From Rikenellaceae bacterium (GTDB taxonomy: Bacteria; Bacteroidota; Bacteroidia; Bacteroidales; Rikenellaceae): a stretch of 64,000 nucleotides of DNA. The DNA lies in contig JAJBVT010000053.1 in assembly GCA_020859685.1 (NCBI GenBank), positions 11,809 to 75,808 on the forward strand, in the 5' to 3' direction. Positions 4,091-58,716 of this stretch are shown here, in pieces (within the stretch, counting starts at the first letter, position 1; each line of letters starts with the position of its first letter). A program made the translations under genes and the position numbers. The notes under the pieces are model-generated. The model was not told the origin of the DNA and did no database searches. It worked only from the letters and a program-made list of their open reading frames with translations.

Positions 4091-7000
4091 TCAATAAGCC
4101 GTTACCACGTCGGGAGCGTACCCTCCGCTGTCGATCTGCTGCTGCTCGCCGCTGTCGGGGAACCGTACGCACCGCGTTTTTATATAATAGGGCAGATTTG
4201 TATCCGGCCGTCTCATCGCGTTAGGTTTATACTTATACACCAACTCCCACCTGTTTTCAAATATCTGCACCGTCGACATGTAATCCGTAAAGTAGGAGGG
4301 CATAAAGGTCCAGTATTCCGTGCCGTTGGCCAGCCCGAGTGCCGTATCGCGCTCCTGCGATTTTATCTCCACGAACAGTTTGGCCTCACCGGTATACTCG
4401 TTGCGGCCGTCGCCCCAGAGGTACCATTTTCCCTGCCCACGCACGGGGTCGGACGGATCGCTCCCCTCGTAATACGCCGCACATCCTCCGTTGCTGACGT
4501 CGTAGGTGGGATAGCCGGAAGTGTAATCGTAGAGGTTACCCTGGTCATCGGCATAAATCGCCGTATCGTACCCATGGATCCCCATGGCGGTACTCCAGGA
4601 CATATAATAGGTTTCGAACGGAACAGTGACCATCCCTGTCGTTAAATACTGTGTTTCGAACAGGCAGTCTTCACGGGCCAGAATCCTTCCGGTTTCGGGC
4701 ATCTCGAAGGCAATGGACGGCTGCACATAGGTGGCTATGTTCCCCGAAGCGTTATTCGACTGCTCATAGGCCCATGCTTCCCAACCGTTGTTTACCAGCC
4801 TTCGGTACGATATGGGTACATTACGCGAAAGTATGGTTCGGTTGTACCTGCACAGCAATTCAGTGGCTGTATTGGCGGACACCCAATCGGCGTTCCTGTC
4901 GACCTGCACGTCCTGCGGTCCGAGCCTGACCTCGACCGTTCCGTCGTCGAAATCTCCGGCCACCGTTACCACCACCCTCGCTCCGTCATGTGATATATCG
5001 TTCCTTTCGGTCGTACCGGGATGGTAGATTTTATGAGTAATGCCGTCTATCCGGTAAAAGCCTATCTGTGTGGCCGTCCTCAGGGTGGCCCATGCGGTCC
5101 CGTCGGTCGACCATTGCAAGGCGACACTGCGCGAAGGCTGGTCGTCCCACTGACCGTAGGCCTTTACCGGAACGGAGAGGGTTTGTGTCACCCCGTCGTT
5201 GGCGGCAGGTATCGACAACGGGTCGGTGAGCACCTCGAGCGTACCGACGCTGATGGCCCGGATATAAATTTGCGGCCAGGCACTCCCTGCCACGGTGACG
5301 GAATAGTCAGCCGTTCCCGGCTTTGGCGGTATCGCGCCTCCTTCGGCAAGGTCGGTGCTGATTTCGTATCCGTAACCGGACTGTATATCTTCCCGGAAGA
5401 CGATCCATTTCGAGGTTGCCGGGTCCTCATATTCGAAAACAAGGCTTCGGTCCTCGTCGCTGTCCCGTGCCGGTATGGTAAGGGTAGCGGTACTCGGCAG
5501 GCCTCCGGGCGAGTTGGAGGGCACCGAAGCGGCGTCGATGGCCGTGCTCTCGTACCGGTCCCTTACCCTTACGGGTATATTTGCGGTGAACATACCGGTG
5601 ACTGTTACCGTCCGGGTCTGCCCAGTGGAGGGAATATCCCCGGTGGGGGTGACGGTGGGGAGTTCGATTCCGCCCTGCGATTCCTGCTCTATGGCTACCA
5701 CCACCTCCACTCCGGCCGAGATATGGAGGTATGCCCGGCGGACGGTGAGTCCGCTATTGACCTCTACGGTGTAATTCAGCTCCTGCCCGGTGGAAGGGAG
5801 GGTGGTATTCACCGTTACCCAATCGCACGGGATGTCCGGGTCGGTTTCCGAATCGGAAACTTTAATGCTCCAGCCCGCAGTGTAGTTTGTTTTGATTTTC
5901 AGCGAAGTGGTCCACGGCGAGGCGCTGTAAGGAAGGCGTGTTATTTTTTCGGACAACGCAACGTAGTAGTGTCCGTCCGATATATAGTAGTGCATCTCCG
6001 CGTCATGGTCGACCACCAGCACCACACCGGTATTCTCGGGACCGGCCCCGGCCGCAATATCCGCCGTGGCGTATCCCGCACGGGAAATGCTGTTCACCGT
6101 GAAACCGTAAGTGTGGTTGCGCAGCAGCGGCAGGTACTCGTAATCGCCGGAGGAGTTCGTCGCCGCGATATCCACACGGTAATAGGTAACCGTGCTGCTG
6201 CCGTCGTACAGCCCACCGATTACGAGGTAGGTGTTGTCCGGCCCCGCGGTGGCGTCCCCGGCCGGGGTTTCGAAGGTGTATATTTCGTTGACACACGATT
6301 TGTCGGCGACCTCCGCATCGTCATACTTATAGACAATTGGCTGGCTTACCCGGCCCCAACCGGAGGTTATATGCGGCGCGGTGGCCTTACCCACGGCGGG
6401 GTCTGTGGCCGACGCCCCGGAGGGTTTCCATGTGGCGTCCCAACCTGCCGCTGCGGGAATCGCCGCCCCGCGGTCGGCCGCGTTATAAAGGTGCACCTCC
6501 CTGAGCAGGAAGTTGTCGGCGGCGACATTCACGTTAATGCGCGCGAGCATCCTGTGCATCGTTACGTCCTCGATAACGGTCTGCTTCTCCACCGCACGGC
6601 CCGTTTCCTCGCCCCACATCGGTATTGGGGCGGGAGTTGCAGCATCCCATTTTTGTGAGGATACCACTACGAGACCGCTCGCCAAATCGTTCTTGGTGAA
6701 GGTATTGGAGCCCATACCCGTAACGAAAGCCTCCACCGTGGTGCGCAGATTGGCTATTATGACTATATCGCACGAGGCGGTCTCTTCGAGCCGGGCGGTG
6801 AAACGGTAATCGTTGCCGGATTCGGGGTCGGCGGTTATGGTTTTGGCTTCGGCACGGTACAGGAAATTCCCACCGGAGGGGCCGAACACCAGCACATCGA
6901 CCTCCGTCACCAATCCTTCCTGTGCCGCGGTCATAGCCCGGGTACCGGGGATGGCCGTTTCGGGCGTACCGGTCTGCGGAACCTTTATTTCGAAAGTTAC

Positions 7001-7156
7001 GAATCCATCCTCTTCCGGCAGGGTTTCATCCCCGTAATTATCGCCCTTGATGCAACCCGAAAGATTCATCAGAATACCGGCAAACAGAACGCAAAGCACT
7101 GCCGGCCATCCCTGCCAGCCTGCCGCTCTACTCCTGTATGTACACAATCCGGTCAT
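4091..7156 (-). CDS. Fimbrial tip/accessory adhesin-like lipoprotein (fimbrillin-like N-terminus, BACON-like Ig region, DUF1566-like lectin C-terminus)
   Basis: 1021 aa with lipobox LSGC. N-terminal fimbrillin-like segments (VDVLVFG.., IVIIANL.., PMWGE). BACON-like CDWVTV...RRAYLHISAG...IEQ. C-terminal GGCAAYYEG...TRCVRF. Last gene of an operon of Mfa-type genes. Confidence 0.6.
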   Translation of the reverse strand: MTGLCTYRSRAAGWQGWPAVLCVLFAGILMNLSGCIKGDNYGDETLPEEDGFVTFEIKVPQTGTPETAIPGTRAMTAAQEGLVTEVDVLVFGPSGGNFLYRAEAKTITADPESGNDYRFTARLEETASCDIVIIANLRTTVEAFVTGMGSNTFTKNDLASGLVVVSSQKWDAATPAPIPMWGEETGRAVEKQTVIEDVTMHRMLARINVNVAADNFLLREVHLYNAADRGAAIPAAAGWDATWKPSGASATDPAVGKATAPHITSGWGRVSQPIVYKYDDAEVADKSCVNEIYTFETPAGDATAGPDNTYLVIGGLYDGSSTVTYYRVDIAATNSSGDYEYLPLLRNHTYGFTVNSISRAGYATADIAAGAGPENTGVVLVVDHDAEMHYYISDGHYYVALSEKITRLPYSASPWTTSLKIKTNYTAGWSIKVSDSETDPDIPCDWVTVNTTLPSTGQELNYTVEVNSGLTVRRAYLHISAGVEVVVAIEQESQGGIELPTVTPTGDIPSTGQTRTVTVTGMFTANIPVRVRDRYESTAIDAASVPSNSPGGLPSTATLTIPARDSDEDRSLVFEYEDPATSKWIVFREDIQSGYGYEISTDLAEGGAIPPKPGTADYSVTVAGSAWPQIYIRAISVGTLEVLTDPLSIPAANDGVTQTLSVPVKAYGQWDDQPSRSVALQWSTDGTAWATLRTATQIGFYRIDGITHKIYHPGTTERNDISHDGARVVVTVAGDFDDGTVEVRLGPQDVQVDRNADWVSANTATELLCRYNRTILSRNVPISYRRLVNNGWEAWAYEQSNNASGNIATYVQPSIAFEMPETGRILAREDCLFETQYLTTGMVTVPFETYYMSWSTAMGIHGYDTAIYADDQGNLYDYTSGYPTYDVSNGGCAAYYEGSDPSDPVRGQGKWYLWGDGRNEYTGEAKLFVEIKSQERDTALGLANGTEYWTFMPSYFTDYMSTVQIFENRWELVYKYKPNAMRRPDTNLPYYIKTRCVRFPDSGEQQQIDSGGYAPDVVTAY

Positions 7157-7164
7157 TCTATTAT

Positions 7165-10068
7165 TTATTTTTCCCTTACGCAGCGGGCGCGCTTACTGTT
7201 GGTGCTTCTGACATTATCATTCCATCCTTTATATTCGAGGTCGAGAACCCATGAGCGATAACTGTTACTAGAAAATACTTCGCTGTTACTCCAGTAATCC
7301 CATGGGTAAGCGTATGCGATTTTGCCAAGCTCGATAAAACGCTGGCCCATTTCATAAGTCTCCTCTACTGTCGGAATGTAAAAATTTTTGGTCGTACCGT
7401 CTTCGGTATATGCGGCACATCCCCCGTTAGCGGCACTGTACGTTTCGGTATAGTAAAGAGTAGGAGATCTCTTGGCTTGCAGGGGGTATGGACCGTGAGA
7501 AGTGCTATATGTATAACCGTCCGCCGAGGCACCTGCCTGCTGGTAGGTTTCGGTGTTGTATTTGGAGTCTATCCCCATTGCGGTCGCCCAGAGCATGATC
7601 TCTACCCCGTCGTCTCCGACCCTGCCGTTAGGCCCGGCATCCTCGATTGCGACCACACGGCCGGTGGAGAGAGTCACATATCCGAGTTGCTTAATCGTGG
7701 CCATATTCACGTCGGTCCAAGTCGACTCCGCCACACCGTCGATATAACGGCGGTACTGGCATTTTATATCCCTGTGACCCGCGTCAGAACCGTATGTCCC
7801 CGAATAGTTGTAGTTGCTTAGTATAGTCAGGTTCACGGCCATGGCCGAAATATCAGTAATATCCGGGCTTGTGGACGATACCACCGTGGCCCCGTCCGAG
7901 GTTACCGCCCTCACCTGTACCCATCCGGCGGAATAACTTCCGGTTACTGTCACGGTCAGGTCGCCGCCGTAAGGCAGAAATGCCCGGATGGTGAGGTTCT
8001 CCCCGTTCTCGATGGCCGGATCCGACGATGAGGACCCCGTAATTTCGTAGTCCCCCCACTGGTTGCCGTAATTCAGGACCGTAGCGGACGTCCAGTCCGT
8101 ACCGCTTCTCGACCATTGCAGCTCCACCACGCGGGCGGCCTGGTCTTTCCACTGCTCGAAGGTCCCTATGGTTATCGACTGCTGCACGGAGCCCGCGCCA
8201 GCCGGAATAGTTATCGGACCCGCGACCACGGTACCGGTTCCCCGTATCACTCCGCGGACGTAAAGCTCCGGCCAGCCGGTACCGGTGACGTTTATGTTAT
8301 AGGTCTGGTCTCGGGCGGCAATCGTACTGTTGTCCGTCAGGGTGGAGGCGACGTCGAAATCGAACCCCTCCTGAGTGGCCTGCATGATGGCGACCCAACT
8401 CCCGCTGGTTTTGTCGTAATACCTGAACTCGATAACCCTCGGTATATCCTGCGACCAGCCGGGAATGGTTACGGTCACGGAAGACGGGTTGCCCGTAGTG
8501 TAATTGGCGGGGATAAATGAATTGGCCGCGGCCTGTGTGATTTCCGTGTCGTTTGTCAGGTCCCATACCTGTACGGGAATATCGTCGAACAGACCCGTGG
8601 CACGGATTACGCGGTCCTCTCCGTCGCCGGAGATATTTCCCGTCGGAGTGACCGATATACTTTCCAGATAGAGCTGCGCCTGGTCTATGCGTACGGCCAC
8701 CGCAAAACTCCCGGCCCTGATATGGATATATCCGACCCGGTGAATCCACTGGTCGGTCACGGCGACCGAGTAGTTTAGCGCGGTTCCCGTGGGAGAACCG
8801 TCCGCCGTAAGCCAGGTGCATGGAACGTCCAGCTCCGTTTCGGAACCGGAGACCGTAGCGGTACAACCGCCCGGGAAATTAGTGTCCACCGTAACGGTTC
8901 CCGTCCCTCCGAGTATATCGTAAGACGCGGAGGTGGGGTCTACCCATATCCAGTACTGGCCGTCGATATCGAATACCTCGTCCGCACCTTCGTTCCACGG
9001 AATCACATCGGCATAGATATCCGCATCCGTGGCCTCTTCCTCCCCGGTACCGGGTCCCGAGACCTTGTAGATATTGAATATAAAGTTGTGGTTGCGAAGT
9101 ATGTCCCACTGCTTGCCGTCGCGGTCGATGAACGGAAGCCTGTACCATGTAACCTCGCCGGAGTTGTCATAGATGCCCGCAATAAGCAGCCAGGTCCGGT
9201 CCTCCTCGTCTATGCCGGAAGCGGTATTGCTCCGCTCGCCGATATAAATACCGTCGGTTATCGTCACCCCGTCGGATGAGGCGTAATAGGCGTTATCGTA
9301 AACCACACCCGTGGGAACGGTAGGGCTCGTCGCTTTGACGCTGCCGGCCGAGGACGTCTCAATATTATCGGGGTCGGGAATAGCGTATCCGCTGTCGACC
9401 GTGTTGTATATCGCCACGTCCACAAGTTCGAAATCCTTCTGGTCGGGGTCGCTCCTGTCGAGGTTTATCAGTACCGTTACCGCGGCAAGCGACCGAAGCA
9501 TATATATTGTGCCGAGGTCGGTCACTTCCTCCACGATGGCGACCGGCCCGTACTCTCCCCACATGGGCAGGGGCCTGTCGGCGCCGTATTGTCCGGAAAC
9601 TTCATTGGAGGGGTTATGGGTTGGGTCGTAGCTCGTCCGGTGGACGAACTCGATAGTAAGAAGGTCGCGTAACTGTGCGACCGTGGTACTCCCCGAGGTG
9701 AGGATGGTCGCGTCGAGTTCGTCTTTGAGGTTGGCGAGGACGACCAGAACCTGCTCCTGGCTTCCGCTTTTGCTCAGGGTTATATCGAACCATTCGTTCG
9801 AGGAGTCGATAACGCTCGCCGAGGAGCGGTATTGGAACGTTCCGGCGTCGGCGCTGAAAGAGAGAACGTCTATGGTCTGTATGAACGTGTCGGCGAAACC
9901 GCGTGTAGATACGGAAGGATTGCCCGGTACGCGGATGTGCATCCGCACCACCTGACTGTCCGGATCGACAGGCGCCACATCGTAGCTACCATCCTTAATA
10001 CACGCGGCCATGATAACGACCGTTAAGGATAGGCAGAGAAAGCCTGTGATATTCGACATCCTGTTCAT
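7165..10068 (-). CDS. Fimbrial tip/accessory adhesin-like lipoprotein, tandem paralog of 4091-7156
   Basis: 967 aa with lipobox MAAC. Same architecture as its neighbour (IDVLSF.., LVVLANL.., PMWGE, BACON-like CTWLTA...RVGYIHIRAG..IDQ, C-terminal GGCAAYTE...RARCVREK). Confidence 0.6.
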   Translation of the reverse strand: MNRMSNITGFLCLSLTVVIMAACIKDGSYDVAPVDPDSQVVRMHIRVPGNPSVSTRGFADTFIQTIDVLSFSADAGTFQYRSSASVIDSSNEWFDITLSKSGSQEQVLVVLANLKDELDATILTSGSTTVAQLRDLLTIEFVHRTSYDPTHNPSNEVSGQYGADRPLPMWGEYGPVAIVEEVTDLGTIYMLRSLAAVTVLINLDRSDPDQKDFELVDVAIYNTVDSGYAIPDPDNIETSSAGSVKATSPTVPTGVVYDNAYYASSDGVTITDGIYIGERSNTASGIDEEDRTWLLIAGIYDNSGEVTWYRLPFIDRDGKQWDILRNHNFIFNIYKVSGPGTGEEEATDADIYADVIPWNEGADEVFDIDGQYWIWVDPTSASYDILGGTGTVTVDTNFPGGCTATVSGSETELDVPCTWLTADGSPTGTALNYSVAVTDQWIHRVGYIHIRAGSFAVAVRIDQAQLYLESISVTPTGNISGDGEDRVIRATGLFDDIPVQVWDLTNDTEITQAAANSFIPANYTTGNPSSVTVTIPGWSQDIPRVIEFRYYDKTSGSWVAIMQATQEGFDFDVASTLTDNSTIAARDQTYNINVTGTGWPELYVRGVIRGTGTVVAGPITIPAGAGSVQQSITIGTFEQWKDQAARVVELQWSRSGTDWTSATVLNYGNQWGDYEITGSSSSDPAIENGENLTIRAFLPYGGDLTVTVTGSYSAGWVQVRAVTSDGATVVSSTSPDITDISAMAVNLTILSNYNYSGTYGSDAGHRDIKCQYRRYIDGVAESTWTDVNMATIKQLGYVTLSTGRVVAIEDAGPNGRVGDDGVEIMLWATAMGIDSKYNTETYQQAGASADGYTYSTSHGPYPLQAKRSPTLYYTETYSAANGGCAAYTEDGTTKNFYIPTVEETYEMGQRFIELGKIAYAYPWDYWSNSEVFSSNSYRSWVLDLEYKGWNDNVRSTNSKRARCVREK

Positions 10069-10086: not shown

Positions 10087-11025
10087 TTATAATTCTCCCG
10101 GCATACTGCTGCCGTCCCAATCCTTAATACTGTTGCCGACAAAAATCCACCCGCCGTAGCGGTCTGCTTCGTAGTAGAGTTCGTAGATATAGTGTTTGTC
10201 GAGGTCCTCGTCGGTCTCGATATCCTCGTAAGCCTGCAAAATCCGCTCGGTTATTTTATCCTCCGTGCGAACTACGTCGCCTTCGAGGATACGCAGGGTA
10301 AGGTCGTCGCCGATAAACAGACGCTGGAGTTTGAACTCCGCCTGAGCGACGTAGGTGTTTTCTTCGGTGAAGCCCGAATAGGTCGGGATATATGATGCGG
10401 TGGCGTTTCCCGCCGCCGGATTGTTTTCGAAATCATAAACGATGTTGCTTCCTTCCACGGAAACAGTGTAATCGGTACCTTCGATGGTACGGGTAGGCTC
10501 GTCCAGGCCCAGCAATCTGATACGGACGATATGAGTGTCACGGATAAGGGAGATGTCGTAAGTCTTAAACGTACTGTCTACTGTCACAGCATCCATACCG
10601 TGGAACAGGTCGGCGACGCCGGTGTGATTTTCACTCGCCTGTATCGTGAATCCCGTGCGGGTAGTGGCCGACGAGGAGCCGATAACTTCGTACCCCGTGC
10701 CGAAAAGGTTGCCCCATACAACCATTTTATACTCGCCCTCTTCAATATCGAGGTAGAGTGTATTGCCGTCTACCAGCGACGACTGCGGCGTGTCGATATG
10801 GTAGACATAGTTGTCGTACATATCGAAAATGTATAGGTGGACGTCTTCCACAAATTCGCTGAACAGGTCGGTAACCTCTTCAGTATGGTCATGGTGGGTG
10901 AATACGAACCGCAAGGCGACCGGCGGAAGCGTCTCCGGGCAGTCCGAATTATCCTCCTTTAGGCACGATGACAGTCCGGCCGTAAGGGCCAGCAGAGCCG
11001 TGAGCGCTCCTGCGATTTTATTCAT
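10087..11025 (-). CDS. FimB/Mfa2-family fimbrial anchor/terminator subunit
   Basis: 312 aa with lipobox LSSC followed by ..DCP... VHLYIFD motif. Size and position immediately after the major subunit gene fit the family. Confidence 0.7.
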   Translation of the reverse strand: MNKIAGALTALLALTAGLSSCLKEDNSDCPETLPPVALRFVFTHHDHTEEVTDLFSEFVEDVHLYIFDMYDNYVYHIDTPQSSLVDGNTLYLDIEEGEYKMVVWGNLFGTGYEVIGSSSATTRTGFTIQASENHTGVADLFHGMDAVTVDSTFKTYDISLIRDTHIVRIRLLGLDEPTRTIEGTDYTVSVEGSNIVYDFENNPAAGNATASYIPTYSGFTEENTYVAQAEFKLQRLFIGDDLTLRILEGDVVRTEDKITERILQAYEDIETDEDLDKHYIYELYYEADRYGGWIFVGNSIKDWDGSSMPGEL

Positions 11026-11113: not shown

Positions 11114-12481
11114 TTAAAGTTCGCCGGGCATATAAACGCCTTCCCAGTTGAGTACCTGGATAGTTACGTGGATGTATGCATCCGGGTCGAGCGGTTCGGG
11201 ATTCTCCGGCCTTCCGCCGTCTTCCTCGTTCCAGCCGAGGCTGGTCACTTTGGTAATCTCGATATCCCAGTACTGGTTGCGGTGCTGTGAGTATTTGTCC
11301 GCGGTAGTGGTCGGGGGAGTGTTACCCAGGGAGCTGTCGAGGTAGATCCAGTAGTACATCAAACCGCCATCGTATTTGAAAGCCGCTTCGTTGGCGCCGA
11401 GTTGGATTACCGGGTCCCCACTGTAAAGTTTATTGTCGGCAGCCCAGTTCACCAGGTCGCCGTTCGAATCTACGGTACCTATCCTCCAGAAATCGTCACC
11501 GGGATTCCATGTACCGGAAGTCACCAGAGCTCCGTTCGCGTCATACCATACGGTGGGAGAGAACACACCTTTAATCGATGCGTAGGTAGCGTTACCGTAA
11601 CGGGCGGTCATATTACTGTTCTCCATCATATAGGTAGGCTCTTCATGGTTGTAGCTGCCGTCGAGGCCGGTTTTCGACCAGTCGGCCTGAGCCCAGTAGT
11701 TGTTGGCATGCACATCGGCCCAAATGCTGTTGTTCCTGTCGAAATACGGGGTCCTCCAAACACCGGACGCATCATAGGTGGTGAAGAGGTACATCTGGTC
11801 GGGCTGGTTTTTGATACGGTACTCCACGTCCGACATGGTTCCGAGAACCGTCGCTCCGGTGGCGTTCCCGTCGGTTACTTCGATGTCTTCATCGTAGTAA
11901 ACACCTACTTTGGCAACCGACCGACCGAGCTTGATGGTGATGTTGTTGTGGTGGTTCGGAGTTTCAGCCTCGTTCTTGGTCGCGCTTACCACCGTATGCG
12001 AAAGCAGCTCGGAAGCCATCCAGAAAGAGTTGTCGACGGTGAGGGTGTCGTTGAAAGCGACCTCGTCTGCGATGTTCACGATATAGCTTTCGAAATTGGC
12101 GGCCGTCATACCTTTGGTCCACACCGGAGTCATATTCGCGGTAGCGGCGAATATTTTAGGACCGGTGGTGATAAGGGCAGTCTGGCTCAGCACGGAGGGT
12201 GTGAAATTCAGCACGTCTTCGATGGTCTGGGTAGCGACGTCGTAGATGTAGAGGTCGATGGTTGAAACTGTTCCCTCTTCCGTCGTAGGCGCGGTATCAC
12301 CGTGGAACGCGCGGGAGTTTGCGTTGGCGATGCTGATGGTGAACGTAGTGTAGGTCTGTTCTCCCGTTGCCTCGGGTGTGGTTTCATCGGGATCGAGATC
12401 GATGTCTTTGTCACCGCTCTTCGAACAAGCAGCAAGTGTCAGGACAGCCAGAGCTGCCACAAGGGTTGATCTGAAGTTCAT
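11114..12481 (-). CDS. Mfa1-family fimbrial major subunit
   Basis: 455 aa with lipobox LAAC. N-terminal TYTTFTISIANANSRA (Arg-type propeptide site) and IDLYIYD. Paralogous to 59879-61405, including similar C-terminal ends. Confidence 0.7.
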   Translation of the reverse strand: MNFRSTLVAALAVLTLAACSKSGDKDIDLDPDETTPEATGEQTYTTFTISIANANSRAFHGDTAPTTEEGTVSTIDLYIYDVATQTIEDVLNFTPSVLSQTALITTGPKIFAATANMTPVWTKGMTAANFESYIVNIADEVAFNDTLTVDNSFWMASELLSHTVVSATKNEAETPNHHNNITIKLGRSVAKVGVYYDEDIEVTDGNATGATVLGTMSDVEYRIKNQPDQMYLFTTYDASGVWRTPYFDRNNSIWADVHANNYWAQADWSKTGLDGSYNHEEPTYMMENSNMTARYGNATYASIKGVFSPTVWYDANGALVTSGTWNPGDDFWRIGTVDSNGDLVNWAADNKLYSGDPVIQLGANEAAFKYDGGLMYYWIYLDSSLGNTPPTTTADKYSQHRNQYWDIEITKVTSLGWNEEDGGRPENPEPLDPDAYIHVTIQVLNWEGVYMPGEL

Positions 12482-12557: not shown

Positions 12558-14231
12558 CTATCTTTTATATCGCTCCATAAGTATTTCGTTTTCCCGTTTG
12601 CATTCCAGCTCTTCGAGATTGTGGGCGGCTTCTTCGGAACCCGCCTCCCGGGCCTGACCCAGATAAAGCGACGCGGTATCCAGGTCCCCCGACAGAAGGT
12701 ACCATACGCCCGTGTTGTTAGCCGCGTCGGGAACGTCCTCCAGCCTGTCGAGGTATCGTCGGGCCGCCGCCATCTCTCCCCGCCGGATAAGCACCGCAGA
12801 GTAGTTGAGCATGGACACGGGGTCGTCGGGATAGAGGCGGATTATGGTCTCGAATATCTGCTCCCACTGCGGCGAACCGTATTCGTAGGATTGCGCCAGC
12901 AGGTAGAGTTCCCTCTGCGACAGCATTTCCGGGTTCCTGTCGGCCAGTTCGCGCGACTCTTCGAGGGTGTAATCCTTTACCGTAAAATCTATCTGGTACT
13001 CAACCCTTCTCAATTGCGGAAACATACCGTCCCTCAGCGTAAGCCATGCCGCGCCGAATCCTTTGAGCCGCTGCTCCTTGCGGTCGGGCTCTCCCGTACT
13101 GTCGATAACTGCCAGAATATCGTCCCGGCGAGCGATATCGCTCTGCTCGACCAACAATCTCAGCCCGTCCCAGTCTTCGGCGACCGAACTGGACCTGATA
13201 ATATTGGCCGGTATGCCGAAGTTCCGGGTTATATAATCCAACAGGGCCTCGGAACGTTCCCGTGCAAGGCGCTCGTTGGTCGCGTAACTCCCGTCCGGTG
13301 AGGCGTAGCCCTCCACGAAGAGCCCTACAATTTCCACATCGCTGTCGGACTGCACCGCTTTGATTGCCGCCTCTATCTTGGAAAGTTCCTCGGGATTACG
13401 GCGGTATGTGGGCACGATTACCGAACGCCCCACGGCGAAATCGAGAAACGCCTGCCCCTGCATCCTCCGGCTTTTCTGCTCCCGCTCCGGCACCACGAAC
13501 GACAATTTGGGCTGAACCTCGTATGGTTCCCGCGGCTGTAATTTCACACGCCCTGCATTTGCGAGGGTATACAACTGCTCTTTCCCGGCCGGTGAGCCCA
13601 CGACCTGATGGATATCGAGAACCGCGTCGTCCATCCACATCCGATAGGGCATCCGCAGGTTGTAGCGCACCAGCGTATCGGTGGAGGTGGTTACCGCAAT
13701 CCTCACGTCGGGAAGATTATCGAGCAGACGGGTGTCCTGAAACTTATAGCGCCGTTTATAAAGCTGCTCCCTCCCCCAGCCGTTTACCATAAGACCGGCT
13801 CCGGTAGCCGTACTGTCCCCGGCGATAAGCTCGGGGATTACGAGCCAGCTCAGCCGCCGGTTCATAACGTCGCCGTCCAGCTTCATCTCGATCTCCATAA
13901 ACAGTTCGTCGTCCTGTTCGGCAATTTCTACCACCGTAACCTTCATCTGCCCGGCGTACTCCGAGCGGTCGACCCTGCGGCGGGATTGATGCCTTTGCAG
14001 AGGAACCGCAAACACGGCCGGGACCGAGAACCTCTGGACAGTCGGACTGCCGGCATCCATTACCTTGAGGTCGCCCAGTTCCATGTGGAGAGAATCGCCC
14101 GACATCCTTATCGTAAAGGATTCTATAACGAATTTACCGTCGTTCAGTTCGATGCGTCCCGTAACCGGCCCGATCTGCGCAAATACGGTGAAGGCGATAA
14201 GTGATAGTATTATGGTATATATATATTTCAT
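12558..14231 (-). CDS. DUF3868-like protein with OmpA-like peptidoglycan-binding domain and C-terminal TPR-like region
   Basis: 557 aa with a signal peptide. OmpA-like block VEIVGLFVEGYASPDGSYATNERLARERSEALLDYI. Sits between the DUF3575 and Mfa1 genes, as in other Bacteroidales fimbrial loci. Confidence 0.65.
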   Translation of the reverse strand: MKYIYTIILSLIAFTVFAQIGPVTGRIELNDGKFVIESFTIRMSGDSLHMELGDLKVMDAGSPTVQRFSVPAVFAVPLQRHQSRRRVDRSEYAGQMKVTVVEIAEQDDELFMEIEMKLDGDVMNRRLSWLVIPELIAGDSTATGAGLMVNGWGREQLYKRRYKFQDTRLLDNLPDVRIAVTTSTDTLVRYNLRMPYRMWMDDAVLDIHQVVGSPAGKEQLYTLANAGRVKLQPREPYEVQPKLSFVVPEREQKSRRMQGQAFLDFAVGRSVIVPTYRRNPEELSKIEAAIKAVQSDSDVEIVGLFVEGYASPDGSYATNERLARERSEALLDYITRNFGIPANIIRSSSVAEDWDGLRLLVEQSDIARRDDILAVIDSTGEPDRKEQRLKGFGAAWLTLRDGMFPQLRRVEYQIDFTVKDYTLEESRELADRNPEMLSQRELYLLAQSYEYGSPQWEQIFETIIRLYPDDPVSMLNYSAVLIRRGEMAAARRYLDRLEDVPDAANNTGVWYLLSGDLDTASLYLGQAREAGSEEAAHNLEELECKRENEILMERYKR

Positions 14232-14270: not shown

Positions 14271-14858
14271 TTATCTTTTGGATTTTATAAGGTATATAAA
14301 GGACACCCCGACCTTTGTGGGCCCGAACCAGTGTTTGTGGTTCCGCTCGAGAAAGTCGCCGCATTTCCAGCACTCGTACCGGTCGTAATTATAATAGGCA
14401 TAGCCGATTCCGGCCGTAGCCTCGAGGTTCCAGTGCGGGCTGAGGTACCACTGGTAGCCGTAAGAAAAACCGACTCCCGCGCCGTAACCCTCGTAACGGC
14501 TCTCTTTGAGACTGCCCAGCGGTGCAAGGGGTATATTTACACCTCCCGCGTTATAGCTGATGAACATACCGTGGACCCCCAGAAAATGGCCGTCCCATCT
14601 TTCGTAGGGCCAGAAACGTACTTCGGGGCGCACGACCCAATGCTGTATTTTTTTGTTATCCTCCGCAGCACCGAACCGCCACGGATTGTAGGAACCCGAA
14701 ACCTCGAAGCTCGTTTTCCTGCCCAGAGCAATCTCCACTGCCATATTCGGCGTGGTCGTGGCCCAGCCTATGAGATTACTCTTTACGGCAACCTGCTAGC
14801 AGAAACCTGCGAACGGTACTATAATGGGTATAAGGATAGCGGGGATATATTTCTTCAT
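14271..14858 (-). pseudogene. DUF3575-family outer-membrane protein interrupted by one in-frame TAG (codon 21)
   Basis: ATG at 14858 gives MKKYIPAILIPIIVPFAGFC, then TAG (14796-14798), then in the same frame QVAVKSNLIGWATTTPNMAVEIALGRK...YNPW...HWVVRPEVRFW (DUF3575 hallmarks). The track ORF 14271-14744 is only the part after the stop and lacks a signal peptide. Confidence 0.65.
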
Positions 14859-15012: not shown

Positions 15013-15381
15013 TCAACCGGTGCTGTTTTCCACCAGATTCTTCCATACCTTTTCCGAGCGCATAAAGCCGGGAAAATCATGGCCGGGCCGCCCATCGCAA
15101 TCCTTGAAACAGGGTGCGCACATCACCAGCAGGTCCCACATCGACAGTTCGTAGAACTTCTTTCGAAGGTGCAGCAGCCCTCCAGACTCCGATAGTATAC
15201 CGTAATCGGTAAGCAACGCAAGCGACGTACGTACCATCGGTAACTCACCCTCGGCGAATCCCTTTAACAGGTTGCTCCGTTCTATACCTTTACCCTCTCC
15301 ATCGGCATACATGAAGGATACCACTCCCAAGAGGGTATAAAGGAATTCGAATTGTGGGGTAAACAATACTTCGTCCTTCAT
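15013..15381 (-). CDS. Small conserved protein, first gene behind the invertible promoter (possible winged-helix regulator)
   Basis: 122 aa from the ATG at 15381 (MKDEVLFTPQFEFLYTLLG...). Paralog of 61763-62134 in the same position in locus 2. The longer track ORF (to 15594) would run through the inverted repeat and the promoter. Confidence 0.6.
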   Translation of the reverse strand: MKDEVLFTPQFEFLYTLLGVVSFMYADGEGKGIERSNLLKGFAEGELPMVRTSLALLTDYGILSESGGLLHLRKKFYELSMWDLLVMCAPCFKDCDGRPGHDFPGFMRSEKVWKNLVENSTG

Positions 15382-15418
15382 TTTTCTGCCGTTTCGGAGG
15401 CTTTTTGTTTTACCTGCC

Positions 15419-15435
15419 GTCACTTCGGGAGTGAC
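15419..15435. repeat. Inverted repeat, operon-proximal (switch A)
   Basis: GTCACTTCGGGAGTGAC, the exact reverse complement of 15748-15764. Confidence 0.85.
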
Positions 15436-15466
15436 AATTCGGAAAACATCAATTACTAATCCTGAG

Positions 15467-15474
15467 CAAATGTA
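15467..15474 (-). promoter_or_regulatory. Bacteroides-type -7 box TACATTTG (TAnnTTTG) inside inverton A
   Basis: Plus-strand CAAATGTA. It lies 31 nt from the repeat and reads toward 15381. Homologous boxes sit at the same distance in switches B and C. Confidence 0.55.
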
Positions 15475-15747
15475 AAAAATAATTTCTATTATCGATACAC
15501 CCCTTCGATAAAATTTATATTTTCCGTACGACCTGAATATATAGAACTTATAATTTATTTTAAGAGAATTACTACCCCCGATTAATATATACATCTATAA
15601 ACAATCGATTCTCTTACGCTATTCCTATGCCCTTCCGGGCCCATTATTTTCTTCTGTTCATTACTTTCTGTTTGCCGAATGTTTGGTGAACTCTTCTAAT
15701 AGATACAATCCGTCGCTCTGTTTTACAGGTCGGTACCTATGATTGTT

Positions 15748-15764
15748 GTCACTCCCGAAGTGAC
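15748..15764. repeat. Inverted repeat, recombinase-proximal (switch A)
   Basis: GTCACTCCCGAAGTGAC, separated from the integrase stop by 29 nt. Confidence 0.85.
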
Positions 15765-15793
15765 GCAATCCAGAATCTTTCTTCATTCCGTAA

Positions 15794-17026
15794 TTATGCG
15801 GCCTCGATAAATCTCGAGAGCCGGTTGCTCAGTTCGTCTATTTCGGAGCGTTCGAACGAGGCGAGGTAAATGGAGGTAACTTTCGGGTCGCGGTGCCCGA
15901 GCCCTTCGCCAATCAACATGATACCGTACCCCATTCTTTTAGCTAAAGTCGCCCATGTGTGGCGGGCAACATGCGTGGAAAGGCTGCTTGTTATTCCCGC
16001 CAGCAGGGATATCTCCTTCAACAACCTGTTCTGCCGGTTCAAAGCGGCTTCGTACCCGGATGGATGAGAAACGCCCTCCGCCATTATCGGGAAGACATAC
16101 GGAGACCGGTTTGTCTCTTTTTTGAAATAGCCGATAATCCTCTTCATGGGTTTGGTAATCCTGACCTGCAGAAAAAAACCGGTCTTACGCCTTTTATATC
16201 GGATGGTATCGCCTTTTATATCGGATTTTTTCAGGTGGGCCAGGTCTATGAACGACATACCGCGGGAGTGGTATGCAAACAGGAAATACATCAGTGCGTG
16301 CCGGAGATTCCTTTTTCCCGCGGGAATCTTTTTCCCGAGCGCGACCAGCGAGTTCATTTCCTTTTGGTCGAGCGCCCGTCTTCGGGTCTCGTACACACCG
16401 GTATAAACATCCTCGAAGGGGTTGGATTCACATTTGCGAATCAGGTTCGCCTTAACGGCGCGGTAATATATCGCCCGGATATTTCGCATATAAAAAGAGA
16501 TTGTATTCATCTGGAGGCCATTGTCCAGAAGGTGCCTCTCGAATGCCCTAATCAGTTTGGGGGTTATATCCGACACTTTTAAGTCCTCCGACCCGGCGAA
16601 CGCGGCCAGCTTCTTCGCGGCGCAGCGGTAGGCCCTTGCCGTCCTGTGGCGCTCCTGTTCCTCCAGCTCGCGGCTGAGAAGTGATGAGAACGATAATAAA
16701 TTGTAGGGCGAGAGCGAACCGTTGAATTCATCGACGATATCTCCGAGACCGTACTCCCCCGCAGCGGAAAGTTTCCGCAGGATAGAGGAGAGGCGTTCGA
16801 GGTCGGCGTTCATCATTTCCTCCAATTGCAGAAGGTGCCGGGTCCGCCCGTTTTCCGCATCGCACGGAATAACCAACCTGCGGCGGACAGGGTCCCACTC
16901 TTCGGGGTAGACCGGGTAGCCCCTCCTTAAATCCCGGTATTTACGCCTGAGGATTAACCGGATAAACAGGGTACCCGGTTTGTCCGGCCCATCCGGACTA
17001 CGGAAATGAAATCTGAAACTTGTCAT
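15794..17026 (-). CDS. Tyrosine site-specific recombinase (phage-integrase family), candidate invertase of switch A
   Basis: Catalytic blocks HVARHTWATLAKRMGY and GLGHRDPKVTSIYLA (H-x-x-R, H, Y). Start chosen at MTSFRFHF by alignment with the paralog 62483-63721 (MTSIRFHY). Confidence 0.85.
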   Translation of the reverse strand: MTSFRFHFRSPDGPDKPGTLFIRLILRRKYRDLRRGYPVYPEEWDPVRRRLVIPCDAENGRTRHLLQLEEMMNADLERLSSILRKLSAAGEYGLGDIVDEFNGSLSPYNLLSFSSLLSRELEEQERHRTARAYRCAAKKLAAFAGSEDLKVSDITPKLIRAFERHLLDNGLQMNTISFYMRNIRAIYYRAVKANLIRKCESNPFEDVYTGVYETRRRALDQKEMNSLVALGKKIPAGKRNLRHALMYFLFAYHSRGMSFIDLAHLKKSDIKGDTIRYKRRKTGFFLQVRITKPMKRIIGYFKKETNRSPYVFPIMAEGVSHPSGYEAALNRQNRLLKEISLLAGITSSLSTHVARHTWATLAKRMGYGIMLIGEGLGHRDPKVTSIYLASFERSEIDELSNRLSRFIEAA

Positions 17027-17299
17027 AATGGTAATATTTATAATAAGTGGATGTATAGTCATGCAAATTTACATTATTACAAATAATACGACCTTTTGGA
17101 CTATTTTTTAATCCGTTTTTATAGTAAAGAGCAGCCAACCGGAATTATTACCATGCGGGTTTTGCCAAAATTAAACCTCTTCCGGATATCGAGGCGGGCG
17201 CCAGCCCTAATACTTTGTGCGCCCTCTTAGCTTCCGTGTATGTTTTATCCGGTCGATAGTCGGGAAATGTTTTATCGGACTTAAAATATTTTGCATATT

Positions 17300-21071: not shown

Positions 21072-21212
21072 ATTTTATACTGTATCTTATAAACACCTCC
21101 CGCCACCTGCGATGAATTTCAGCGCTCCGGTATTTGGCACAACCATATAACCGGAATATTTCTATATTTGTGCACAGACCCGTCGCAAACTGTAACCTTA
21201 ACTTACTTACCA

Positions 21213-23558
21213 ATGAAAATCAGAGGATTATTTTTAGTAACCCTTGCATTGTTGTTTGCAGCGGAACTGAGCGGTCAGCCTCACGGCTTCGGGAACGGCC
21301 GGACGGCCAAATGGATTGCACCGGCCGGCTGCCAAAACGAACCCAACACCTGGATTACATACAAGAAAACCGTGGAAACGGACAGGCTTCCCGAGGGCGA
21401 TATTTATGCCGATATTGCCGTGGACAGCAAATACTGGCTATGGATCAACGGGCGACAGGTGGTTTTCGAAGGCGGCCTGAAACGCAGCCCGAACCCGGCG
21501 GATACATACTTCGACCGAGTCGACCTCACCCCCCACCTCGTACCGGGCAGAAACGATATAGCCGTACTTGTCTGGTACTTCGGCAAGGAGGGGTATTCCC
21601 ACAAAACCAGCGGTCACGCGGGGCTGCTGTTCGACTGCCCCGGTGCCGGAATCGTTAGCGACGGCAGTTGGCGCTGCACCGTCCTTCCCGAGTACGGAAC
21701 CGCGGGAGACCCGCAGCCCAATTATCGCCTACCGGAATCTAGTATCCTCTACGATGCCCGTATCGCCACCGAGGGGTGGTGGCAGCCGCAGTTCGATATC
21801 GCGGGTATGCCGTATGCCGTGGAGGTCGGCAGTGCGGAGGACGGACCATGGGGCAAGCTCGTAGAGCGGCCGATACCGCAATGGAAGGACTACGGGCTTA
21901 AAGATTACCCCGCCCGGCAGACCGTAAGCGGGTCCGTATACGATACCGTGATATGCACACTTCCATACAACGCCCAGATAACGCCCTGGTTCGATATCGA
22001 GGCGGACAAGGGCGACCATATCCTAATAATGACCGATAATTATCTCCGCTACAACGGCGGGGAAACCAACCTTCGCGGCGAGTATATCGCCCGGCAGGGA
22101 CGGCAGGAGTACGAGAACCCGGGCTGGCTGAACGGACACAAAGTCTACTACCTGTTCCCGAAGGGGGTGAAAGTCCACGGTCTGGGATACCGGGAGACGG
22201 GTTATGATACGGAGTTCGAGGGGATGTTCCGGTGCTCGGACCCGTTTTTCAACGCCCTGTGGGAGAAATCGGTGAGGACCCTCTACATTACCATGCGCGA
22301 TAGCTATATGGACTGCCCCGACCGCGAACGGGCGCAGTGGACCGGGGATGCCGTAAACGAGTCCGGCGAGGCGTTCTACGTACTGTCGCAATCGAGTTAT
22401 GACCTGAGCCGGAAATGGCTTTACGAGACCATCGGCGGATGGCAGCGCGAGGACGGCAGTATCTACTCGCCGACCCCTTCCGGAAACTATTTTTCCGAGC
22501 TGCCCGCACAGTCGCTCGCCACGGTCGGTTATTACGGGTTATGGACCTATTACCTTTATACCGGCGACATCCGGCCGGTGGCGGACCTTTTCGACAATGT
22601 AAAGCGATACCTCGACCTCTGGGAGATTGACGACCGGGGCCTCGTAAAATACCGTGAAGCCGGTTGGAACTGGGGCGACTGGGGCGACAACCGGGATATG
22701 CTCCTGATATACAACCTCTGGTACTATCTTGCGGTGAAGGGAATGTATTACGGCGCCGTCGAATTGGGCAGGACGGAGGATGCCGACAATTACCTGTCGT
22801 ATATGACCCGGTTCGTCGAGGCGTTCAAGGCCTGTTTCTGGACCGGCAACGAGTACCGCGACCCGGATTATACCGGAGAGACGGACGACCGCGTACATGC
22901 GCTGGCCGTGGTATCCGGTGTGGCCGGAGAAGATAAATACCCGGCAATCCTCGGGGTTTTCCAACGTCAGGAGCATGCCAGCCCCTACATGGAGAAATAC
23001 GTATTCGAGGCTATGATGCGAATGGGTTACGCATCCGAAGCGATGGACCGTCATAAAAAACGGTTCGGAAAAATGGTGGACTTCCCGCTCACCACACTGT
23101 TCGAGGGGTGGGGAATCGGTCCCGAGGGATTCGGCGGAGGAACGGTAAACCACGCATGGAGCGGAGGCGGACTTACCGTACTCTCGCAGTACGTGTGCGG
23201 TGTGGCGCCCACCGAGCCGGGATGGGAAATGATGCACGTTTTGCCGGTACCTGGATACCTTACGGAGGCTGAAATCTCCGTTCCTACGGTCAAAGGTACG
23301 GTCGAAAGTAAATTTACGACGGACGGCGACGGTTTTAACCTGTCCGTCACCATACCGGAGGTTCGGACCTGCGTGATTGGCGTTCCGGCCGACGGCGCCG
23401 GGAGCGTCTTCCTGAACGGTGAACTTATCTGGACCGGGGGGAAATTCGTCGACAACGGTTCGGGCGCAAACCCCCGGGAAGACATAACCGGCCATATCGC
23501 GGTGGAGGTCGGTCCGGGAAGTTATGAAATGACCCGGACAGGGGGAGTACTGTTTTAG
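21213..23558 (+). CDS. GH78-like (alpha-L-rhamnosidase-related) six-hairpin glycoside hydrolase
   Basis: Start moved to MKIRGLFLVTLALLFAAELSGQ (signal peptide). Motif MDCPDRERAQWTGDA resembles the rhamnosidase catalytic-domain box. Confidence 0.6.
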   Translation: MKIRGLFLVTLALLFAAELSGQPHGFGNGRTAKWIAPAGCQNEPNTWITYKKTVETDRLPEGDIYADIAVDSKYWLWINGRQVVFEGGLKRSPNPADTYFDRVDLTPHLVPGRNDIAVLVWYFGKEGYSHKTSGHAGLLFDCPGAGIVSDGSWRCTVLPEYGTAGDPQPNYRLPESSILYDARIATEGWWQPQFDIAGMPYAVEVGSAEDGPWGKLVERPIPQWKDYGLKDYPARQTVSGSVYDTVICTLPYNAQITPWFDIEADKGDHILIMTDNYLRYNGGETNLRGEYIARQGRQEYENPGWLNGHKVYYLFPKGVKVHGLGYRETGYDTEFEGMFRCSDPFFNALWEKSVRTLYITMRDSYMDCPDRERAQWTGDAVNESGEAFYVLSQSSYDLSRKWLYETIGGWQREDGSIYSPTPSGNYFSELPAQSLATVGYYGLWTYYLYTGDIRPVADLFDNVKRYLDLWEIDDRGLVKYREAGWNWGDWGDNRDMLLIYNLWYYLAVKGMYYGAVELGRTEDADNYLSYMTRFVEAFKACFWTGNEYRDPDYTGETDDRVHALAVVSGVAGEDKYPAILGVFQRQEHASPYMEKYVFEAMMRMGYASEAMDRHKKRFGKMVDFPLTTLFEGWGIGPEGFGGGTVNHAWSGGGLTVLSQYVCGVAPTEPGWEMMHVLPVPGYLTEAEISVPTVKGTVESKFTTDGDGFNLSVTIPEVRTCVIGVPADGAGSVFLNGELIWTGGKFVDNGSGANPREDITGHIAVEVGPGSYEMTRTGGVLF

Positions 23559-23869: not shown

Positions 23870-24169
23870 GTCACTTAAGGAGTGACGGATAGGCAAACAG
23901 AAACCTGTCGGTACAAATGTAAAAATAAAATTTATTTATCTAATCATAACCGCAAAAATCTTAATTTCCGATGCTGTAATCCCATTCGGGGCCAATGCAG
24001 TATTCGTATCTTTAATCACCGTTGCCCCGGACAAATCCAAGAACCGGATTTCCCGTGTAGATATTTGCGGAATGTTTGTTACCGGTTACGTCGGAAGAAA
24101 TTTAAAGTAACTGTTAACCAATAAATTATAGCCGTAGTCAGATTCCAGTATTGTCACTCCTTAAGTGAC
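23870..24169. promoter_or_regulatory. Orphan invertible promoter segment (inverton B)
   Basis: GTCACTTAAGGAGTGAC (23870-23886) and its exact reverse complement GTCACTCCTTAAGTGAC (24153-24169) bracket 266 bp. There is no recombinase gene or fimbrial CDS next to it. Confidence 0.65.
23914..23921 (-). promoter_or_regulatory. -7 box TACATTTG inside inverton B
   Basis: Plus-strand CAAATGTA 27 nt from the left repeat. The surrounding sequence gtacaaatgtaaaaataaaattt resembles gagcaaatgtaaaaaataatttc in switch A. Confidence 0.5.
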
Positions 24170-24322: not shown

Positions 24323-25348
24323 TTACAACCCTCTGAGGTGCTTCTCCCACGCCCAAGCGGAGCGGAGGGTCTCTTCGAGACTGCGTTCGGCCTTCCAGCC
24401 CAGCTCGGTGTTGGCCAGCGTGGTATCCGCCCACACCGCCTCGACGTCGCCCGCACGGCGGCCCACGATTTTATACGGAACCGCGACCCCGTTCACCTTC
24501 TCGAACGTGCGCACCAACTCCAGTACCGAGACCGGCCGACCCGTACCTATATTAAATATCTCGTACCGCTCTTTCATTCCGCCGCCGACCATCCTGCCGA
24601 CGGCCACAACGTGCGCCTTGGCAAGGTCCACCACGTCGATATAATCCCGGAGGGCGGTGCCGTCCTCCGTATTGTAATCGTCGCCGAATATGCTGAGCCG
24701 GTCGCGGACACCGGCGGCCGTCTGGGTAATAAACGGTACGAGGTTGTTCGGTACCCCCTTTGGCAGTTCCCCTATAAGCGCAGAAGGGTGGGCTCCTATG
24801 GGATTGAAATAGCGCAGGGCTATCCCGCTCAGGCCCGCGTAGGCCGCAACACTGTCCCGCAGGATATCTTCGCAAATCTGTTTGGTATTGCCGTAGGGCG
24901 AGGTAGCCGGTTTACGCGGGGTGCTCTCGGTAGCGGGAAGTATGTCCGGCTGGCCGTACACCGTGGCTGACGACGAGAACACGATATTGGGAACCCCGTA
25001 CTCCTTCATCAGCTCCAGCACGGTAACGAACGACCCGAGATTGTTCCCGTAGTACAACAGCGGCTGCTCCACCGATTCGCCCACCGCCTTGCTGGCTGCG
25101 AAATGGATGACCCCGCAGAAGTCGTGCACCTTGAAAACTTCTTCGAGGGCAGCCCTGTCGTTACAGTCGGCCTTCACGAACGGTATCTCCCGGCCGGTGA
25201 TTTCCCGCACCCCCTCGATTGCCGACAACTCGGAGTTCGACAGGTCGTCCACCACCACCACTCCGAAACCGGCATTTATAAGTTCGACCGCCGTATGGGT
25301 CCCGATATATCCGGCCGCACCGGTTACAAGCACTTTTCCTTTTTCCAT
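24323..25348 (-). CDS. galE: UDP-glucose 4-epimerase
   Basis: Start at MEKGKVLVTGAAGYIGTH (Rossmann GxxGxxG). SDR-extended Y-x-x-x-K (PYGNTK). About 340 aa. Confidence 0.85.
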   Translation of the reverse strand: MEKGKVLVTGAAGYIGTHTAVELINAGFGVVVVDDLSNSELSAIEGVREITGREIPFVKADCNDRAALEEVFKVHDFCGVIHFAASKAVGESVEQPLLYYGNNLGSFVTVLELMKEYGVPNIVFSSSATVYGQPDILPATESTPRKPATSPYGNTKQICEDILRDSVAAYAGLSGIALRYFNPIGAHPSALIGELPKGVPNNLVPFITQTAAGVRDRLSIFGDDYNTEDGTALRDYIDVVDLAKAHVVAVGRMVGGGMKERYEIFNIGTGRPVSVLELVRTFEKVNGVAVPYKIVGRRAGDVEAVWADTTLANTELGWKAERSLEETLRSAWAWEKHLRGL

Positions 25349-56093: not shown

Positions 56094-56121
56094 ATACTTT
56101 TTAGTATTTGTATCCTTACTA

Positions 56122-58704: not shown

Positions 58705-58716
58705 ATCTGCTTATTT

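Follow-up and report, generated by a model that had tools for sequence, protein, structure and literature searches.

In an uncultured bacterium of the family Rikenellaceae, is a pilus operon controlled by a promoter that a neighboring recombinase can flip, and in which orientation was that promoter assembled? The question is raised by a 64,000-nucleotide stretch of contig JAJBVT010000053.1 (assembly GCA_020859685.1, positions 11,809 to 75,808), referred to here as the window, in which a short segment bounded by inverted repeats (IRs) separates a tyrosine recombinase gene from a fimbrial gene cluster. An earlier note on this DNA had described the segment as a promoter flanked by perfect inverted repeats and caught in the ON orientation. 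Our analysis makes it highly probable that this element, inverton A, is a promoter inverton operated by the adjacent tyrosine recombinase and assembled ON before a type V pilus operon. That switching actually takes place in this organism we infer from sequence. The genes are arranged on the minus strand in the order recombinase, inverton, winged-helix-like open reading frame (ORF), DUF3575 gene, OmpA-like gene, FimA fimbrillin, Mfa2 and large pilins. The placement of the inverton between the recombinase stop and the first operon gene, as given in the earlier note, agrees with the end of the recombinase ORF at 15794 and the ATG of the first operon gene at 15381. The fimbrial locus that it had named is borne out by Pfam as a type V (FimA/Mfa) pilus operon.

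Inverton A is bounded by a perfect inverted repeat of 20 nt. The operon-proximal repeat IR-L (CGTCACTTCGGGAGTGACAA) occupies 15418..15437 and the recombinase-proximal repeat IR-R (TTGTCACTCCCGAAGTGACG) occupies 15746..15765, with 308 nt between the arms. The repeat had previously been reported as the 17-mer GTCACTTCGGGAGTGAC at 15419-15435 and its exact reverse complement at 15748-15764, separated by 312 bp. Both 17-mers are present at these positions and the spacing holds for them, while the length of 17 nt does not stand, the full perfect repeat being 20 nt. The invertible segment itself (15438..15745, 308 bp) is AT-rich, with a GC content of 33% versus 53% in the flanking genes, and falls within the range of about 150-350 bp found for the intergenic segments of Tsr-type (tyrosine site-specific recombinase) invertons. 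Each arm contains the half-sites GTCAC and GTGAC around an asymmetric 7-nt spacer, TT-CGG-GA, and IR-L holds the complete 5-7-5 core site GTCAC-TTCGGGA-GTGAC. This is the imperfect palindrome of Tsr-type sites with one base changed per half-site compared with GTTAC-N7-GTAAC. The repeat is far beyond chance: allowing up to 3 mismatches, the 17-mer has 8 matches where 0.2 are expected, a number reached in none of 100 shuffles. When the window was searched for perfectly matching IRs of 15 nt or longer at a spacing of 50-1500 nt, only inverton A and two sister elements, B and C, were returned, and 30 random control windows yielded one 15-nt seed in total.

The gene next to IR-R encodes an intact tyrosine site-specific recombinase (Tsr-like invertase). 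Recombinase A (15794..17026, minus strand, 410 aa) contains the Pfam domains Phage_int_SAM_5 and Phage_integrase, and its stop codon is located 28 nt from IR-R. The catalytic motif check comprised HxxR (HVARHTW) and GH...Y (GHRDPKVTSIY), both of which align with solved integrases. The longest ORF starts at 17062 and encodes 422 aa; the paralogue in the window, the homologues and the NCBI protein (410 aa) begin at M13 (17026). M13 is probably the true start, and the 12 extra codons (17027-17062) are probably 5' leader and not coding sequence. A TAAATTTG box at 17064..17071 (minus), 38 nt upstream of the M13 start and overlapped by the longest ORF, probably forms, together with the box at 17166-17173, the recombinase gene's own promoter. 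Differences between gene calls (122 versus 193 aa and 410 versus 422 aa) were considered as a sign of a flipped segment and rejected, being gene-caller differences only. Recombinase A shares 57% identity with its counterpart at locus C, and in a homology search its nearest homologue in any of the collections covered was 59% identical, with nothing between 59% and 100%.

The promoter inside the segment points outward into the operon. A -7 box TACATTTG occupies 15467..15474 on the minus strand (plus strand CAAATGTA), 29 nt inside the left arm, and reads toward IR-L and the operon; the match to the Bacteroidetes consensus TAnnTTTG that had been claimed for this position is found in the sequence. 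A conserved upstream promoter block GTATCGATAATAGAAATTATTTTT (15475..15498, minus), which includes the equivalent of the -33 region, aligns in A, B, C and two homologous loci, L004 and L104. TAnnTTTG is rare in the window, with 32 occurrences counting both strands. From 4.0 to 17.3 kb the operon strand has it three times, namely as the inverton box and at 17064-17071 and 17166-17173. Since the latter two are located upstream of the recombinase gene, the inverton box represents the only consensus promoter for the 11-kb operon. ON is the right call because the promoter points into the operon, and from this orientation the operon is predicted to be transcribed in the ON state. Between the predicted transcription start and IR-L lies a short leader motif, ATGTTTTCCGAA (15438..15449, minus). 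A, B, C and L004 conserve it as (G/A)ATGTTTgCCgA, and it could be part of the 5' untranslated region or an accessory recombinase contact. Rfam detected no RNA family anywhere in the window, and a terminator scan found none between recombinase and operon; a sigma-70 scan is uninformative for Bacteroidetes promoters.

Homologous loci carry the same architecture with the promoter in either orientation. The comparative set comprised 80 loci with homologous recombinases, taken from species-representative genomes. Of these, about 38 possess a perfect IR of 13-30 nt, mostly tens of nucleotides past the recombinase stop and enclosing 142-346 nt. IR-bearing loci are found in Alistipes, Rikenellaceae, Prevotella, Bacteroides, Odoribacter and Parabacteroides. 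Aligned on their centers, the sites give the consensus nTC(T/A)C-TT-NNN-AA-G(A/T)GAn, with a central trinucleotide that varies freely. The half-sites are GTCAC/GTGAC where the recombinase is 44-59% identical and TCTC/GAGA at 31-36%, and such tracking of half-site type with recombinase relatedness would be the pattern expected for a co-evolving enzyme and site. In about 35 of the homologous invertons, a TAnnTTTG box lies 3-35 nt inside one IR and faces outward; 7 loci have it directed at the operon and about 27 at the recombinase. In the closest related locus, L104 (GCA_020859875.1, contig JAJBVJ010000253.1, from a second Rikenellaceae metagenome-assembled genome), a promoter block GTATCATAAATAGAAATTAATTTTTACATTTG almost identical to that of A is located beside the recombinase-proximal repeat. 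We aligned the segments in the recombinase-to-operon frame, unflipped and flipped, and compared the outcome with the shuffled maximum. A versus L104 gave 25 unflipped and 47 flipped (shuffled maximum 29), A versus L004 gave 26 and 53 (shuffled maximum 26), and L104 versus L004 gave 77 and 21 (shuffled maximum 28). Segment A thus has to be flipped before it aligns with either of its two nearest homologues. On these alignments, mirror positions of the promoter between syntenic genes are the apparent product of repeated inversion and would be hard to obtain otherwise. The homologous blocks of L104, L004 and locus C are all mirror-placed relative to A, in keeping with the ON call of the earlier note.

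Contigs of the same organism were collected by exact-protein look-ups with the recombinase, small ORF, DUF3575, OmpA-like and fimbrillin proteins, and all belong to one run series, SRR152196xx. Inverton A is spanned in SRR15219653, SRR15219656 and SRR15219649, each time in the ON orientation, colinear with the window and at 99.96-100% identity to it. Together with the window this gives four assemblies, and the ON call is robust for the majority state. Two further contigs stop at inverton boundaries. In SRR15219646, contig L088 breaks off precisely at 15746, where IR-R of A has its innermost base, and in SRR15219649 contig L099 does so at the corresponding base of IR-R of C, 62458. Other contig ends nearby, at 62308 and 62310, flank a polymorphism at 62309; L098 and L103 end at this polymorphism and L102 starts 24 nt away from it. 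Because these other ends flank a strain single-nucleotide polymorphism (SNP), contig ends can be read as graph forks. We assumed k = 31 for the Logan assemblies; a repeat of 20-22 nt alone should not break a graph of longer k. Forks at the first base inside the IRs of A and C suggest mixed orientations. Strain SNPs are present at 62309, 15302, 16906, 17186, 62146 and other positions, at 1-2 per kb between SRR152196xx contigs, and indicate that several closely related strains coexist in these samples.

The same data bear on the strongest rival explanation, a relic switch that has kept the inverton architecture and no longer flips in this lineage, with the promoter fixed as constitutive and locked ON. 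Finding ON in all four assemblies that span A, when about 80% of the homologous loci were assembled OFF, would fit such a relic, and the nonsense codon in the DUF3575 gene described below could be an alternative way of silencing an unswitchable locus. However, the two IR arms still match perfectly along all 20 nt, the recombinase has kept an intact ORF and its catalytic motifs, and the contig end exactly at the inner IR boundary is what mixed orientations predict. Consensus assemblies moreover give the majority state only. We consider a relic improbable.

Several observations weigh against a working promoter switch. Inverton A is never flipped in the contigs of this organism, being ON in all four assemblies. 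A 20-mer scan of the metagenome collection returned two single-copy matches on unrelated contigs (L002 and L003), which were taken uninspected as chance. A graph fork could also be mimicked by a SNP located precisely at the first inner base, or by a drop in coverage, though this is less likely. The promoter has no obvious -33 TTTG element in A, where a conserved GTATCGA block is all that can be made out. The recombinase gene is co-directional with the operon, which makes read-through possible in the OFF state. Lastly, the DUF3575 gene (14271..14858, minus; Pfam DUF3575, E=4e-57), which encodes an outer-membrane beta-barrel protein and is the second gene of the operon, contains an in-frame TAG at codon 21 (14796-14798, minus), directly after the signal peptide. 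The codon aligns with a Gln of the intact 198-aa homologue P0129, the change being CAG-to-TAG. It is found in every assembly covering the site. The product annotated by NCBI has 166 aa and is devoid of a signal peptide. The second gene of the ON operon is probably non-functional, and ON may not yield a complete surface structure.

A second rival explanation regards the segment as a non-autonomous transposon (MITE) or insertion sequence (IS) remnant with terminal inverted repeats. A short AT-rich segment with perfect terminal inverted repeats and three copies with related termini in 64 kb would be in line with such an origin. Yet the flanks, TGTTTTACCTGC and CAATCCAGAATC, are devoid of a target-site duplication, and the three copies in the window lack the near-identity expected of MITE and IS copies. 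Promoter block aside, segments A, B and C are only about 47% identical inside, and the same low conservation is seen among homologous invertons. The segment further keeps the same position just after a tyrosine recombinase in about 40 loci of different genera, with locus-specific spacers, and its promoter orientation alternates in place. A transposon origin is very improbable and membership in these element classes was rejected.

The arms might instead serve as operators for a dimeric DNA-binding protein or as RNA attenuator hairpins. Each arm is palindromic (GTCAC-N7-GTGAC) in the manner typical of operators, the first operon gene is predicted to encode a winged-helix-like protein, and IR-L, which lies in the 5' leader, forms a small hairpin. 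However, loci in Prevotella, Bacteroides and Odoribacter possess the site and always the recombinase without the small ORF, the fold of the 5' leader is no better than that of shuffled sequence (z = -0.8), and the mirror promoter positions in related genomes would be left unexplained, all of which leaves this explanation with very little probability. Still weaker, and with hardly any probability, is the idea of a mobile-element integrase with the repeats as attachment-site remnants: it could draw on the phage-integrase superfamily, a weak Arm-DNA-bind_5 signal and the 'site-specific integrase' annotation, but the neighbors are MarR, MFS and UbiD genes (housekeeping-type) to one side and the pilus operon to the other, mobilization and phage genes are absent, attachment sites flank as direct repeats and not as inverted repeats 308 bp apart, and a paralogous recombinase-inverton-pilus module is located 47 kb away.

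If inverton A is a recombinase-operated promoter switch, strand exchange would occur within the spacers at predicted cleavage positions. As the two core sites are inverted relative to each other, the segment would flip and not be deleted. In the ON state, the promoter, about 30 nt from the segment end, would fire through IR-L into a leader of about 80 nt, reach the ATG at 15381 and continue into the operon. In the OFF state, the promoter would be located at 15709-15716 on the plus strand, reading antisense into the recombinase 3' end and leaving the operon without a consensus promoter. Antisense feedback on switching would be speculation. The predicted OFF-specific junctions of A are TTTTACCTGCCGTCACTTCGGGAGTGACAACAATCATAGG and GTTTTCCGAATTGTCACTCCCGAAGTGACGCAATCCAG, and, given by side, TTTTGTTTTACCTGCCGTCACTTCGGGAGTGACAACAATCATAGGTACCGACCTG (left) and AGTAATTGATGTTTTCCGAATTGTCACTCCCGAAGTGACGCAATCCAGAATCTTT (right). 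Inverton A has the site GTCAC-N7-GTGAC in common with B and C, and the central trinucleotide of the spacer is CGG, AAG and GAA across the three invertons of the window. Tyrosine recombinases require spacer identity. Differing trinucleotides would therefore block recombination between loci and keep them from recombining with each other, while paralogous recombinases could use the common half-sites.

Comparable switches are known from Bacteroidaceae. In Phocaeicola vulgatus, adjacent Tsr recombinases invert the promoter of Mfa1 fimbriae with a switch of >100-fold, and in related Bacteroides fragilis loci one Tsr flips a local and a distant site (PMC12940148). P. vulgatus BVU2684/BVU2677 and B. 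fragilis IVp-I/IVp-II (BF2766) resemble locus A in combining a recombinase, an inverted promoter and an operon for Mfa1/FimA and Mfa2 on the same strand (PMC12940148, PMC4747536). Inversion by BVU2677 and BVU2684 has been assayed in E. coli as a heterologous host. We also count among the likenesses that most cells and assemblies are OFF in the P. vulgatus and B. fragilis system, and its recombinases acting on more than one site are relevant to inverton B, an orphan in the window. In contrast, the IR motif of this system is TACTTNNNANGTAANNGAA and that of A is GTCAC-TTnnnGA-GTGAC; the hosts are Bacteroidaceae, while A belongs to Rikenellaceae, where inversion is predicted from the DNA; and, unlike in P. 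vulgatus, the operon of A begins with winged-helix-like, DUF3575 and OmpA-like genes. The recombinases of the Phocaeicola and Bacteroides loci compared are about 31-37% identical to that of A. As far as a review describes it, the B. fragilis aap locus with Tsr15 (AapI) is similar in being a phase-variable surface or fimbrial-type locus with an adjacent tyrosine recombinase (Weinacht et al. 2004, cited after PMC12632263).

The sites of inverton A are also similar to those of an S-layer switch in B. thetaiotaomicron. BT1927 is preceded by a 256-bp promoter element with 22-bp IRs, and the motif in orthologues is GTTAC-N7-GTAAC (PMC4611039). Eight B. thetaiotaomicron loci consist of a tyrosine recombinase and a promoter segment of about 301 bp with imperfect 17-nt palindromes (bioRxiv 10.1101/521070). 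With this BT1927-type system (Tsr26, BT1928/29), which switches S-layer/OmpA loci in B. fragilis as well as B. thetaiotaomicron, A shares imperfect 17-nt palindromes of 5-N7-5 layout, a segment comparable to the 256-301 bp found there, an adjacent tyrosine recombinase, OmpA-like cargo and the presence of several paralogous loci per genome. The half-sites differ, being GTTAC/GTAAC in the BT1927-type and GTCAC/GTGAC in A, as does the cargo, which consists of S-layer lipoproteins as opposed to a pilus operon. The eight B. thetaiotaomicron promoters are near-identical, whereas the three segments of the window are not.

Two better-known switches are more distant. The fimS element of E. coli is a promoter segment of about 300 bp flipped by the tyrosine recombinases FimB and FimE, with the recombinase gene adjacent, and its inversion turns fimbriae ON and OFF. 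fimS and A are analogous, not homologous. On the NCBIfam models for tyrosine-type DNA invertases (FimB/FimE-type), recombinase A reaches 21 and 18.6 bits at cutoffs of 221 and 222, and membership in the FimB/FimE type was rejected. It is twice the length of FimB/FimE and possesses an N-terminal SAM-like domain. fimS has 9-bp IRs, a sigma-70 promoter with -10 and -35 elements and chaperone-usher cargo, as against 20-nt IRs with 5-7-5 sites, a Bacteroidetes promoter and a type V pilus in A. Mpi of B. fragilis is a serine recombinase that acts globally from a distant gene on capsular-polysaccharide promoters. Like A, Mpi invertons carry invertible TAnnTTTG promoters for surface structures in Bacteroidales. 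A differs in that a tyrosine recombinase is encoded beside the site and the cargo is without UpxY/UpxZ and glycosyltransferases.

The operon behind inverton A is oriented with the promoter and encodes a cell-surface structure, as is found for Tsr-type invertons. Both hallmark components of a type V pilus are present: a FimA-family fimbrillin, the stalk-type pilin of the FimA/Mfa1 kind (11114..12481, minus, 455 aa; Pfam P_gingi_FimA and Fimbrillin_C), and an Mfa2-family anchor pilin (10087..11025, minus, 312 aa; Pfam Mfa2, E=6e-35). Upstream of these genes, the operon starts with a gene for a 122-aa protein (15013..15381, minus) that has no Pfam or NCBIfam match and is predicted to be winged-helix-like, followed by the DUF3575 gene. 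The next gene encodes an OmpA-like/DUF3868-like protein of 557 aa (12558..14231, minus) with weak Pfam matches to OmpA, TPR and DUF3868, and an OmpA-like gene adjoins DUF3575 also in L004, L005, L019 and L104. Two large ORFs at 4091..10068 probably belong to the operon as well and encode pilins with an accessory or tip role: a 1021-aa ORF (4091-7156, minus) with FimA/BACON signatures and a 967-aa ORF (7165-10068, minus) without Pfam match. They lie on the same strand with short intergenic gaps, and the operon interior is devoid of TAnnTTTG on the operon strand.

Inverton B is an orphan element. Its IRs (23870-23886 and 24153-24169, GTCACTTAAGGAGTGAC) enclose 266 nt and have half-sites identical to those of A. 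It carries the same conserved promoter block, with TACATTTG on the minus strand near the left arm, and lies without an adjacent recombinase between a rhamnosidase gene (21168-23558, plus) and a convergent epimerase/dehydratase-like gene (24323-25348, minus). Whichever way it is oriented, the transcripts it could produce would be limited to antisense or short intergenic ones. Recombinase A or C presumably flips it in trans, unless it is a relic. Inverton B was colinear in all contigs of the run series and no contig ended at its boundaries.

Inverton C has 22-nt IRs at 62159-62180 and 62458-62479 with 277 nt between them. It is part of locus C (genes 53148-63721), which consists of a paralogous recombinase, the inverton, a small ORF, a fimbrillin, Mfa2 and further pilins. 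The promoter TACCTTTG is located on the plus strand at about 62420, beside the recombinase-proximal repeat, and faces the recombinase. As it points at the recombinase, C is OFF, with A being ON in the same assembly. Some contigs break off midway through inverton C; rearrangement was considered as a cause and rejected, as these breaks coincide with the strain SNP at 62309.

Homologous loci show further variation around the same core. At L104 (1252-8490), the recombinase and distal pilins are nearest to locus C of the window (71% and 37-51%), and the DUF3575 and OmpA-like genes are nearest to locus A (80% and 69%), making it a mosaic pilus locus. This mosaic suggests that modules may be shuffled between paralogous pilus loci. 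In L005 (1280-2532) and L019 (4296-5507), whose recombinases are 47-49% identical, GTCAC-type repeats are located about 1.2 kb apart, and the invertible segment contains an AraC-family gene of about 290 aa (HTH_18, cupin) upstream of the outward promoter. With this gene inside the segment, regulator and promoter would invert as one unit. Cargo in the wider family includes a SusC-like receptor, an OmpA-DUF3575 fusion, a KOW/UpxY-like protein and a PAPS-reductase-like protein. In L037 (4223-4422, from the isolate genome of Segatella albensis DSM 11370), a run of N directly follows the core TCTCTTCCTAAGAGA of the recombinase-proximal repeat, and either a gap in the assembly at this inverton or database masking could account for it.

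The first gene of the operon belongs to a lineage-restricted and very small family that accompanies these invertons. About 15 cluster representatives were found among 1.84 billion proteins, and a word-index search with the first-gene product matched itself only. The product is 37% identical to its paralogue at locus C (61763-62134, minus). In the closest relatives, L004, L005, L019 and L104, the family member is always the first gene after the inverton, and W82, D83 and P90-W91 are nearly invariant. The AlphaFold model (pLDDT 83) is winged-helix-like, and Foldseek gives only weak matches (E >=0.018), to Rrf2/IscR, MarR and the fimbrial regulator PefI, so that an identity as a winged-helix regulator is to be treated as a lead only. 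A further proposal, which we hold to be rather doubtful, is that this protein and its C paralogue are phase-coupled regulators, made when their own locus is ON and acting in trans on sister loci. Their targets would be the sister promoters, recombinases or palindromic 17-mers. The assembly state with A ON and C OFF is compatible with this proposal and no proof of it. If true, it would mean one-pilus-at-a-time expression, a pilus counterpart of trans-inhibition by UpxZ in capsule expression or of PapI/PefI in enterobacterial fimbriae.

This class of inverton is already well described in Bacteroidales, and inverton A leaves the understanding of phase variation unchanged. For genome interpretation, the 'site-specific integrase' annotated beside this pilus operon is to be read as an invertase and not as the mark of a mobile element, and expression of this pilus operon is not readable from one assembly. 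The comparison of homologous loci gives a clean picture of the sites: the 5-nt half-sites are invariant, the spacer is framed as TT...AA, and the trinucleotide at its center is specific to the locus. As a very probable promoter inverton, A would extend the recombinase-flipped surface-structure promoters of Bacteroidaceae to an uncultured member of the Rikenellaceae whose nearest sampled recombinase is 59% identical.

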